Made by a program: the position numbers and the translations under genes. DNA of 64,000 nucleotides from a virus. A model generated the notes under the pieces. That model saw only the letters and a program-made list of their open reading frames with translations, did no database searches and had not been told where the DNA came from. The stretch lies in the IMG/VR virus record IMGVR_UViG_3300045988_159113. One strand, written 5' to 3'. Position 1 is the first letter of the stretch, and each line of letters begins with the position of its first letter. Positions 2,832 to 5,592 of this stretch are shown piece by piece.

Positions 2832-3165
2832 TACTTACTAGATCTTTCTGTCCTATATGGTGTGTGCTGTGGTCTATCGGGCATGGCATATGACGCTCGA
2901 ACATATCGGTCTTGTATCCTGTGTAGAATTTCGTATCAGTCAACCGGCGACCATGAAGCTCTTTTTCTAGATATTCGAGAAACTTATCATCGTCTAGCTG
3001 CGCGCATATATGGAGAGGGTGCTCTGGATCATTCAATCCAAGCACAAGATCAATAGCTCCACCTGGTAATCTGTGAATATTCAAAAGGCCAACATAACAC
3101 TTGCCGTATACTTTAAAAATAGTTTCTAGGATCGCTTGAGCGAACTTGTCCGTAGCTGTAGTCAT
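2824..3165 (-). CDS. hypothetical protein
   Basis: Intact 113-aa ORF with ATG start and TGA stop. No TAG. 8-nt overlap with the downstream gene. Confidence 0.5.
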   Translation of the reverse strand: MTTATDKFAQAILETIFKVYGKCYVGLLNIHRLPGGAIDLVLGLNDPEHPLHICAQLDDDKFLEYLEKELHGRRLTDTKFYTGYKTDMFERHMPCPIDHSTHHIGQKDLVSNG

Positions 3166-4411
3166 TGGTTTGCAAATACATGTTAAAATTAGCCGTCATC
3201 TAGTTATTCTTTTTGATAGGTCCGAAATGTTTGATCCCTCGTTCGTCATAATAATATCCAAAATCAACAAACTCATCGTCTGCTTTTTTCTATGCCTACG
3301 GCGTGATTCCGGACAGCTCTTCATCTGCAAGCTCACATTCTCCCATAGCAGCCACGATATCAAACTTACGTTTGTTTTCGTCAGAGTATCTTGATAACTC
3401 ATCAAGCATTTCCTCAAACCATATATCGTAGCCATAATCAAGGACGAAATCCTTAATCAGGTCTGTCTAATGATCGATAACAGCAGGAGATGCTGGGGAT
3501 CCGTATTGCTACGTTTTACGTCTTGCTATATCTGGATATGTTGCAGATGGGCGTTTCATGAAGTAATTCAAGAGATGCCTATCACGTGCCCATGTCACCA
3601 TGGACATCCTCGTTGCCTCGATGTTAATCTGGCAGTTGTAATACATAGCAAGACCAATAGCTACCTCATAAGCTTCTCGTATATCATCCGGTCTATCTTT
3701 ATATATGGCAACGTATCTAGGCGTGCGATTGCCAAACGTGCGACGCTTGACAACCATACAGAAATCAGACGGATCTTTGTATGTTGATGATGTCTGCAAC
3801 ATACCGATATCAATTCCGTCAATACCGGCGACATATAGGTTGTTTGTTTTCTCTATCAGACCTTGAGACTCACCGTCTCGCTCTTTATCTTCTACCCATA
3901 GTGGATGCTCTAAAATCTTGATCTTGCCATCTTTGCAAGCATTCCATATAACGCTCTAAACATGGGCTCTATCAACCTTGCGCTCTGTATTCTTATACTG
4001 GAAACGTATGGTGCCAATATCAATAGGCGGACATTCATGCATTGCGCGGATGCGTGTGAGCTATTCGGCAATAGTTGCCCTGTTGAATTTATTCTGAACT
4101 CCAGAAGAAAAAGCCTCTGTATCATTGAACGGATACTCTGCACAGTGATCAATGAGTGCAGCAGGATCAGAAGCCATAGCTGCACGAATCTCATTTTGCC
4201 ATTCTACAACAGCGTCAGGATCAACAAATCCTCTATGCGAAAGAAACCGCTTTCTATCTTTTGGTATCTTGGTGCAAGGTATGAAAAAAGAAGTCAACAC
4301 CTCTGCACCGTTTTGCGTGTATCTGTGCCGATGTGGGAGAATACCGTAAACCTCAGGATGGTAAAACATACGCTGTAATCCATCGAGTGATTCCTTGGTG
4401 TCTCCAGATGT
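3113..4411 (-). CDS. terL: terminase large subunit, C-terminal (nuclease) segment
   Basis: Track ORFs 4061..4441 and 3509..3802 share one frame and are joined by TAG codons. Sequence TSGDTKESLDGLQRMFYHPE... through ...YVAGIDGIDIG is terminase-like. The last in-frame TAG is at 3200; the first TAA is at 3113. Confidence 0.65.
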
Positions 4412-4608
4412 CATAATATTTTCGTCAATGCTTTTTATCATTGCTCCTTACGCTTTCACGTAAGATTGGCGTACATTTTCCAGTATTAACTGGTCGGGCA
4501 CTCTTGGAGATATTATTTCAATCTCTACGCTCTACATTTAACAACTCGGTGTCGGCAGTTAAGCGTTCACCGATTTTGCCCGATTTTATACGGGGGCCAT
4601 CTTGGTTA
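4412..4608 (-). other. 197-nt intervening sequence splitting terL (candidate group I intron, or a gap between two terL polypeptides)
   Basis: The upstream terL frame closes at TAA 4606-4608 directly after ...VCGG. Deleting exactly 4412..4608 joins GGT (4609-4611) to ACA (4409-4411) in frame, giving VCGG-TSGDT. The segment starts after a U and ends in G. It contains several short hairpins plus AAGGAG 5 nt before an internal ATG (4441). Confidence 0.4.
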
Positions 4609-5592
4609 ACCTCCGCACACACGTATTCCCCATGACGCATTCATGGGACCAACAAGCGCCGTTGCCTGGATGTATGCCTTAGCAAAATTCTTCCATGAAC
4701 CTACCTCGTCCATGGCAAGAATATCCAAACGGAATCCACGCAACTTGCTTGGGTTATCTGCGACAATGCCGATAATCTAAGACATCCATCCTACCTCGAT
4801 TTTTTGTCCGTTGATTATCTTATAATGAGAGGATCTTTTCCAATCAGTGGAATCTTTCACCTATCGTAATTTAAAAAATCCGCCATCAGTGTTGTCGTTT
4901 AAAAAAGCCAAACAGTTCCAGATCTTACCGATAGTGTTGTCTAAATAGTCAGATCTATGAGTGGCTAACATGTTTATGGAATTTTTGATGCAATTATAGC
5001 TGTTGGCTAGAATTGCTGAAAGCATCTCAGAATAACCTACCTCTCGTGCTTTCATTATCACGGCATTCCTTCTGAGTCTTTTACACATCTCATAATAATG
5101 AAAAAACTCATATTGCCCAGCATAAAAAGCCGGGAAAATAAAAAGACGACCACCACCTGACTTTTCAGTGTTGTCAAGGTCCATAAGCTGGAAATAATTC
5201 AAGAAAAAATAATTGTCACCAGTTATGGTGTAGCCGTTCACGGTCATCCCGTGCTTGCATCGCTTATATTCCTCAAGCCAAAAATCCTGGAATGCTTTCG
5301 TCCCTTTATGGAACTACGTATAGTGTCCAGTTCGCAAGAAAGAATCCCTCGCCTCAGTGAACCAGTCAGGATCGAAATCTAGCCCAGATGTTTTGTTTAT
5401 CGGAATGTATCCAGTAAGCTCATAAGATAGATCAGTATCAAAAAATACGATCTCTTGATCAATAGGTATATCCCACTAGCCTTTGTGCTCGCTTTTTACC
5501 TATTCAACAATTGCATCTTCATCATGAATATCCTTGAGCATTACCTCGTCAACAATTTTCTGTATCTCCTCAGGATATTGTACATTTTTCAT
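4609..5592 (-). CDS. terL: terminase large subunit, N-terminal ATPase segment
   Basis: ATG at 5592. Includes track ORF 4861..5247 extended through in-frame TAGs. Walker-B-like RLDILAMDEVG. The frame differs from the C-terminal segment. Confidence 0.7.

Follow-up and report, generated by a model that had tools for sequence, protein, structure and literature searches.

The stretch of DNA under study (hereafter the window; 64,000 nucleotides (nt) of the IMG/VR virus record IMGVR_UViG_3300045988_159113) carries on its minus strand a terL gene whose coding sequence is broken by a short segment at positions 4412-4608. From ATG 5592 the reading frame runs to ...GUG UGC GGA GGU (last base at 4609), where the next codon is UAA (4608-4606); the coding of TerL picks up in another frame at ACA 4411-4409 and extends to TAA 3115-3113. 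Excision of the segment (197 nt, not a multiple of three) fuses GGU to ACA and gives a single open reading frame (ORF) of 760 codons, with ...IRVCGG|TSGDTKESLDGLQRMFYHPE... in the product across the junction (predicted spliced junction, ...GUGUGCGGAGGU-ACAUCUGGAGAC...). The break and the restoration of the frame by removal of these 197 nt had been pointed out in an earlier reading made without database searches (the sequence-only reading), and both are confirmed by the continuous ORF and by a gap-free alignment to a homologue. The segment is very probably a group I intron without an ORF of its own in terL of a gut crAss-like phage.

The spliced TerL matched the crAss-type TerL family phrog_6681 in PHROGs in one unbroken stretch (residues 47-704, E=2.5e-71). 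Sequence searches with the same protein in Pfam and PDB gave no match, and PHROGs alone recognised it. The junction aligned gap-free to the uninterrupted TerL of MT835470.1 (41% identity; IRVCGG|TSGDTKESLDGL versus TRFVWG|TGGDQGPALDGL); in this comparison with an intact homologue, which the sequence-only reading had proposed as a check, not one residue was missing at the junction. The break falls within a conserved motif, GG-T-(S/G)-G-(D/E), which follows the Walker-B-like LDILAMDE at a distance of about 30 residues, and we infer that the motif is the ATPase coupling motif.

terL alleles with and without insertions

Viral contigs were scanned with a TerL alignment, which yielded three contigs (L003, L004 and L005) with a terL about 98% identical to that of the window at the DNA level. 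In L003 and L004 the gene lacks exactly the 197 nt and reads GTGTGCGG[C/A]GGGACATCTGGAGAC where the window reads GGAGGT|intron|ACATCT. L005 also lacks the 197 nt but has a related insertion of 193 nt after residue 185, in the Walker-A-like KAREVGYSE (GAGAGGT|AGGAUUU...AUAUUUUG|AGGTTATTC). Two contigs of about 193 kb found in a metagenome scan, L206 (OLWK01000011.1) and L207 (OLXI01000008.1), bear both insertions. The 193-nt insertion, a sister intron likewise without an ORF, occupies the KAREV|GYSE site in L005 (3555-3747), L207 (3630-3822) and L206; the equivalent site of the window (5038/5039, minus strand) is empty. Two copies of the sister intron differ at three positions, all of them in loops (P1 loop, L5 and L6).

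Phages that are about 98% identical thus display four intron states: none (L003, L004), the 193-nt intron only (L005), the 197-nt intron only (window), and both (L206, L207). As all four states occur among such close relatives, both introns must have been gained or lost independently. This pattern is the one expected for mobile introns, unlike that of a fixed split gene. The 197-nt copy of L206 and L207 is located at the same site as in the window and is identical to it (197/197), despite 41 differences in the 2304 exon positions. Applied to 197 nt, the rate of exon divergence predicts 3.5 differences, and the chance of finding none is about 0.03. An identical intron in genomes with 1.8% exon divergence hints at a recent exchange, which may have occurred by recombination between co-infecting phages.

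The intron-less alleles read GGN-GGG-ACA, with GGG in place of the GGU of the window. The boundary is therefore ambiguous by 1 nt, since removal of 4413-4609 also restores the frame and leads to an identical protein. Positions 4412-4608 were preferred because group I introns follow a U at the 5' splice site and have G as their last base.

Stop codons of two kinds must be distinguished in terL (3113-5592, minus strand), which holds 12 in-frame TAG codons and no TGA codon. TAG is evidently read as a sense codon in the phage of the window, and a suppressor-type tRNA gene is present (Table 1); according to Yutin et al. 2021 (PMC7886860) TAG is decoded as Gln. With TAG being a sense codon, TAA is a genuine stop, and the break at 4606-4608 differs in kind from the TAG codons. 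Ordinary ORF calling shatters the late genes of a phage in which TAG is reassigned. Besides the suppressor-type tRNA gene, a cluster of three tRNA genes (Lys-UUU, Leu-UAA and Gln-UUG) is found at positions 32600-33164 on the plus strand of the window.

Fold of the segment and its predicted splice sites

The minus-strand RNA of the segment folds better than shuffled sequence (z = -3.25), and the core order P3-P4-P5-P6-P7-P3'-P8-P7'-P9 with the P3/P7 pseudoknot was found in it. Covariation was assessed in alignment A2, which consists of 16 ORF-less copies and onto which a structure with P3, P4, P5, P6, P7 (pseudoknotted with P3), P7.1, P8, P9 and P9.1 was written. In A2, 97.2% of the cells were in standard pairs, compared with 28-43% in controls in which the partners were slid by 1-3 columns. 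Changes on both sides were present in 34 of 45 pairs, and none of 500 shuffles attained any of the observed measures. P3 was paired in all sequences with six different helix sequences; P4 (6 bp) was 100% paired and nearly invariant, and P5 was 85% paired with compensatory changes. When 82 distinct sequences were aligned in addition, the paired share of the cells was 98.0%, a value biased towards the structure because this alignment was fitted to a model. The two variable pairs of P7 covaried in the 82 sequences (AU/GC 45:32 and GC/AU 45:31) by clean switching between A-U and G-C, and the G-C and C-G pairs adjoining the P7 bulge are invariant in the family. No second hairpin beside P7.1 was seen between P7 and P3'.

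Table 1. Features of the terL locus, and the suppressor-type tRNA gene (P, paired region; J, joining region; both-side or compensatory changes refer to alignment A2 unless stated otherwise)
Feature	Position	Strand	Sequence or partner; basis
Suppressor-type tRNA, CUA anticodon	15045-15121	-	ARAGORN (labelled 'Pyl') and Rfam tRNA match; required for the 12 in-frame TAG codons of terL
terL exon 1	4609-5592	-	328 codons; N-terminal part of the ATPase domain; ends ...IRVCGG, last base U 4609; translation, phrog_6681 match, homologue alignment
Intron, probable ORF-less group I, 197 nt	4412-4608	-	starts with in-frame UAA, ends with G 4412; alleles with and without intron, covariation, leave-one-out match
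terL exon 2	3113-4411	-	432 codons and TAA stop (3115-3113); first codon ACA is Thr of the GG|TSGD motif
P1	4587-4619	-	last 11 exon and first 2 intron bases (UGUGCGGAGGU|UA, 4619-4607) pair with internal guide UGGCCCCCGUAUA (4599-4587); loop ACCAAGA (4606-4600)
Candidate P10 guide	4598-4602	-	AGAUG; complementary to CAUCU of the 3' exon (4410-4406), just 5' of the P1 guide; read from the sequence
P3 5' strand	4578-4583	-	UCGGGC; pairs with 4499-4494; 100% paired in 16 sequences, both-side changes in 6/6 pairs
P4-P5 domain	4546-4573	-	P4 UCGGUG (4573-4568) and CACCGA (4551-4546) around a short P5 (GC/GC)
P6 position	4536-4545	-	shrunk to GUUGUUAAAU, stem of at most 3 bp; relatives have a 7-bp P6 with conserved AUUGCGAAAGG loop
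P7 5' strand	4526-4532	-	G-A(bulge)-GCGUA; pairs with 4473-4468 (UACGCC); presumed guanosine-binding helix; 100% paired
P7.1 hairpin	4507-4525	-	GAGAU-UGAAAUAAU-AUCUC; between P7 and P3'; 5/5 pairs compensatory, 100% paired; 98.7% in 82 sequences
Linker and P3 3' strand	4494-4506	-	conserved CAAGAGU, then GCCCGA (4499-4494); A2 alignment
P8 hairpin	4480-4493	-	CCAGU-UAAU-ACUGG; compensatory changes
J8/7 and P7 3' strand	4468-4479	-	AAAAUG, then UACGCC; J8/7 invariant in the family (A2 columns)
P9 hairpin	4447-4464	-	CUUACG-UGAAAG-CGUAAG; 5/5 counted pairs compensatory, 100% paired; 3' strand and next bases form AAGGAG
P9.1 hairpin	4426-4443	-	CAAUG-AUAAAAAG-CAUUG; 99% paired, 6/6 pairs compensatory; ATG 4441-4439 in the 5' strand
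3' tail	4412-4425	-	ACGAAAAUAUUAUG; ends with terminal G (omega-G, 4412); relatives end ...GAUAACAAnnUG

Four short hairpins had been listed in the sequence-only reading. Three of them, GAGAU/AUCUC (P7.1), CCAG/CUGG (P8) and CUUACG/CGUAAG (P9), are supported by covariation. The fourth, CCCG/CGGG, is not and was rejected: its CGGG belongs to the 5' strand of P3 and covaries with the distant GCCCGA.

Hardly any variation exists across the family in three single-stranded motifs, namely UGAAUAAAUAUAAU in the loop of P7.1, AUAAAAAG in that of P9.1 and GAUAACAA in the 3' tail (A2 columns 110-135, 224-231 and 239-246; window 4512-4520, 4431-4438 and 4412-4425). They probably form tertiary contacts. 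In the window, the loop of P7.1 is shorter (UGAAAUAAU) and the tail diverges from the family motif (ACGAAAAUAUUAUG).

At the 5' splice site, the last U of exon 1 (4609) is in a U•G pair of P1 in the minimum-energy fold. When P1 was anchored on this U•G, seven of eight pairs formed, which was matched by 50 of 5000 shuffles (1%). P1 stems read by hand in relatives with fixed boundaries likewise ended in U•G: GGU|AG with CUGCC in L005-A (the sister intron), CGGU with GCCG in L001-B (L001 being MT835539.1), GGGGU with GCCCU in L187, and GUCGGU with GGUCGAC in L199. The final intron base in the RNA is G (4412), as it is in L005-A and L001-B, the boundaries of which are set by intron-less alleles. 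Both features, a start after U and an end in G, had been noted in the sequence-only reading and were borne out; the imperfect pairing between GGCCCCCG and the exon end that it had considered proved to be P1. Intron bases 1-3 form the in-frame UAA. Insertion after a U, often with a stop codon at the start, has been described for group I introns of phages and Bacillus (Tourasse and Kolstø, PMC2504315).

Relatives of the segment in other phages

A first strict DNA pattern (P4...J8/7) hit three viral contigs only and was replaced by a looser pattern derived from the conserved 3' half, which recovered at least 120 viral contigs. At least 97 copies with the structure belong to the family of the segment. 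R1, a covariance model for the P7-P9.1 domain, was constructed from 15 relatives with the window excluded. P9 was left out of R1 because the MAFFT alignment A3, in which 44 of its 75 cells were paired, did not hold it in a single register. R1 scored window positions 4422-4537 (minus strand) with 90.7 bits (E=5.3e-18) in this leave-one-out design and found no further family copy in the 64-kb window, where the next best score was 12.6 bits.

Annotated introns were found by R1 as well. That of the terL gene of Lactobacillus phage JCL1032 (EU409559.1), a coding sequence annotated as a join, scored 81 bits, and the annotated dUTPase intron of the prototype crAssphage (BK010471.1) gave a weaker but significant match of 27.9 bits. 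At the latter locus (230-1914) the intron is annotated with an HNH endonuclease, and its 3' end resembles the family with 91% identity over 45 nt; its presence contrasts with the statement that alpha-gamma crAss phages lack such insertions. In BLAST searches the family core was detected in phages of Staphylococcus, Bacillus, Clostridioides, Oenococcus and a cyanobacterium as well as in several crAss phages, frequently with an HNH or LAGLIDADG gene next to it.

Annotated HNH and LAGLIDADG genes are present at family matches, and the endonuclease ORFs of longer relatives sit in the P1 loop or the P5 loop. An example is MT835539.1, in which an insertion of about 1.1 kb (3536-4638) lies near the terL site of the window and is homologous to the segment in its 3' 215 nt. 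Several stems differ on both strands between this insertion and the segment. The copy is inserted 6 nt downstream of the site used in the window (MGGTG|GE versus VCGG|TS), with a guide tailored to the shifted site, and its LAGLIDADG ORF lies in the P1 loop. The ORFs inside both long introns of MT835539.1, placed in the P1 loop and the P5 loop, exceed the Pfam cut-offs for LAGLIDADG_1/_3. The LAGLIDADG ORF of the first terL intron of this genome (intron A, 2150-2990) contains in-frame TAG codons, which means that the endonuclease is translated with the reassigned code of the phage.

Other crAss-like contigs hold the same core at two further positions of terL. At the Walker-A site, L005 and L187 on the one hand and L199 on the other appear to have insertion points 4 nt apart. 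A family intron of about 1 kb with its ORF in the P5 loop occupies a third site, which follows residue 686 of TerL in the C-terminal nuclease part (L032, 5056-6084; L036, near 5986). The shifted insertion points suggest intron sliding or re-targeting. Bacillus prophage introns behave in the same way, with shifted sites and adapted guides (Tourasse and Kolstø, PMC2504315).

Interpretation, alternatives and known introns

The group I reading is supported by five independent lines: the alleles with and without the insertion, the covarying structure, the leave-one-out match of R1 (90.7 bits), the family shared with the annotated introns of JCL1032 and the crAssphage dUTPase gene, and the LAGLIDADG ORFs of relatives. 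Several points weigh against it. The case is built on DNA sequence, from which splicing of the terL RNA is predicted. The candidate P10 is only 5 bp long, and no counterpart was seen in the sister intron L005-A. P2 is absent and P6 nearly so, which means that autonomous folding and catalysis are not guaranteed. Finally, the Rfam group I model RF00028 (Intron_gpI) gave no match on the segment (4250-4800, E≤10) and none on the window at the gathering threshold or at E≤0.05. It did match the relative L132 over the full model (45.8 bits, E=1.4e-8), with a score below the curated threshold of 50 bits.

The Infernal search with the Rfam group I model had been proposed as a check in the sequence-only reading, and its negative outcome is regarded as false. 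Even at E≤0.01, RF00028 also misses the annotated JCL1032 intron (L208, 2040-2160) and the family members L089, L093, L123 and L161. Given this gap in sensitivity, its silence on the window carries little weight. RF00028 is insensitive to this widespread lineage of phage introns.

Splicing would proceed as follows. The terL pre-mRNA would fold, the end of exon 1 pairing with the internal guide (P1) and the last exon U being placed in the U•G wobble. Free guanosine bound in P7 would attack the 5' splice site and then give way to the intron's terminal G, and the 3'-OH of exon 1 would attack the 3' splice site. P10 (CAUCU with AGAUG) might assist this second step. Ligation of GGU to ACA would yield a TerL of 760 residues. 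The in-frame UAA probably halts ribosomes before they enter and unfold the ribozyme. Devoid of an endonuclease, the intron probably spreads by recombination between co-infecting relatives, helped in trans by endonucleases of sibling introns, or by reverse splicing.

Whether such splicing would be autonomous is a separate matter. The intron of the window is a trimmed form of the family: members without an ORF typically possess both a P2 hairpin and a P6 of 7 bp and measure about 260-290 nt (an estimate), compared with no P2, a P6 of at most 3 bp and 197 nt in the window. It might thus be a group I derivative which lost P2 and P6 and splices only with the help of a phage or host protein or of a factor acting in trans. 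Almost all relatives retain both elements, and the few pairs left in P6 are weak. LAGLIDADG proteins can serve as maturases. Further, crAss-like genomes are reported to code for many intron-encoded proteins (PMC7886860). The remaining core helices of the window (P1, P3, P4, P5, P7, P7.1, P8, P9 and P9.1), however, are all intact, and the only variation of the sister intron between two phages is at the three loop positions mentioned above. Moreover, the Azoarcus intron exemplifies small natural ribozymes that self-splice at a size of about 200 nt. On balance, dependence on a cofactor is considered unlikely.

Far less probable still is the alternative put forward in the sequence-only reading, the expression of terL as two polypeptides, with UAA 4606-4608 terminating the N-terminal ATPase fragment and ATG 4441 initiating the C-terminal one. 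The ATG shares the frame of exon 2 and follows AAGGAG at a distance of 7 nt, and that reading had seen no comparable Shine-Dalgarno sequence at the other starts that it examined in the window. Yet AAGGAG consists of the 3' strand of P9 plus linker and the ATG is part of P9.1; these bases covary with their partners, and the elements are not conserved in relatives, which lack the ATG. In Bacteroidota and their phages, Shine-Dalgarno sequences play only a minor part. Phages about 98% identical to that of the window encode a fused TerL from which precisely the 197 nt are absent, and the break would interrupt the conserved GG-T(S/G)G(D/E) motif. Among 82 terL loci compared, none was split at this position into two ORFs without the intron core, so homologues with two separate TerL halves at the same break, which would have spoken for this alternative, were not encountered.

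Ribosome bypassing of the kind known from T4 gene 60, a sequencing or assembly artefact, and a pseudogene in a defective phage have, taken together, next to no probability: the putative take-off site resembles that of gene 60 (GGU UAA, with a stop directly after a Gly codon) and the sequence is of metagenomic origin, but there is no matching landing codon (UAUUAUG, not GGN, precedes ACA), the gap of 197 nt is far from the 50 nt bypassed in T4 gene 60, the identical 197 nt with every stem intact are present in two independent assemblies of about 193 kb besides the window, the segment belongs to a family of structured copies, and the remainder of terL is intact. Two other types of element were rejected. 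A group II intron does not fit a segment that starts with UAACC instead of GUGYG, has 197 nt instead of several hundred or more, and gave no match to Rfam group II models; an intein does not fit one that is out of frame and begins with a stop codon.

Among known systems, the group I intron of the window is most directly compared with that of JCL1032. Both reside in terL and belong to the same RNA family (81 and 90.7 bits with R1, neither being part of the model), and they share J8/7 AAAAU-UA-GC, the P9.1 loop AUAAAAAG and P7.1. The JCL1032 intron reportedly splices in experiments. It differs in being inserted at another site in a siphovirus of Firmicutes, whereas the window derives from a crAss-like phage of a probable Bacteroidota host and its copy is devoid of P2 and P6.

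The classical phage introns of subgroup IA (T4 td, nrdB and nrdD, Twort, SPO1, and the B. cereus prophage term-IVS; PMC2504315) have in common with the intron of the window a hairpin between P7 and P3' (P7.1), an insertion point that follows a U within the best-conserved region of an essential gene, an intron that opens with a stop codon, homing endonucleases in peripheral loops of relatives, and a P1 re-tailored to each site around a conserved core. They possess both P7.1 and P7.2, in contrast to P7.1 alone in the window, whose intron is also much shorter; the likeness is one of individual features. Among natural group I introns that self-splice, the Azoarcus pre-tRNA-Ile intron (about 205 nt) is the one usually named as the smallest. 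It is likewise a compact, ORF-less ribozyme of about 200 nt but belongs to subgroup IC3, resides in a tRNA anticodon loop, has no known sequence relation to the family described here and keeps P2 and P6, in contrast to the intron of the window with no P2 and hardly any P6. Judged against this size, the 197 nt of the window and the 193 nt of the sister intron would be at or below that of Azoarcus.

Group I introns in crAss-like phages and in phage terminase genes were already known; what distinguishes the present one is that it is very small, ORF-less, and invisible to both Rfam and endonuclease screens. Terminase genes are recognised targets of group I introns (PMC3984707; also PMC2504315). 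The largest crAss-like phages (145-192 kb, with TAG or TGA reassignment) were reported to carry up to 14 group I introns per genome, found via endonuclease domains, and terL of the Delta group was presented chiefly as an intein-bearing gene (Yutin et al. 2021, PMC7886860). With these Zeta/Delta introns (PMC7886860) the intron of the window shares a genome of about 193 kb, TAG reassignment, a suppressor tRNA and a location in conserved late genes. It differs from them in having no ORF and is therefore missed by the endonuclease-based approach, as it is by Rfam.

The findings leave the understanding of the group I intron mechanism unchanged. They have practical consequences for terL, the main phylogenetic marker of crAss-like phages, which is called as several fragments unless the intron is removed and TAG is read as a sense codon. 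It is conceivable, if rather doubtful, that the 197-nt and 193-nt introns are naturally minimised group I ribozymes which still splice alone or with a phage factor, and that such ORF-less mini-introns could explain part of the 'unknown forms of gene fragmentation' of the Zeta group. If self-splicing holds true, a natural group I core of 193-197 nt with no P2 and a vestigial P6 would be a useful minimal ribozyme. As ORF-less copies escape both Rfam and endonuclease screens, the intron load of these abundant gut phages is probably underestimated.

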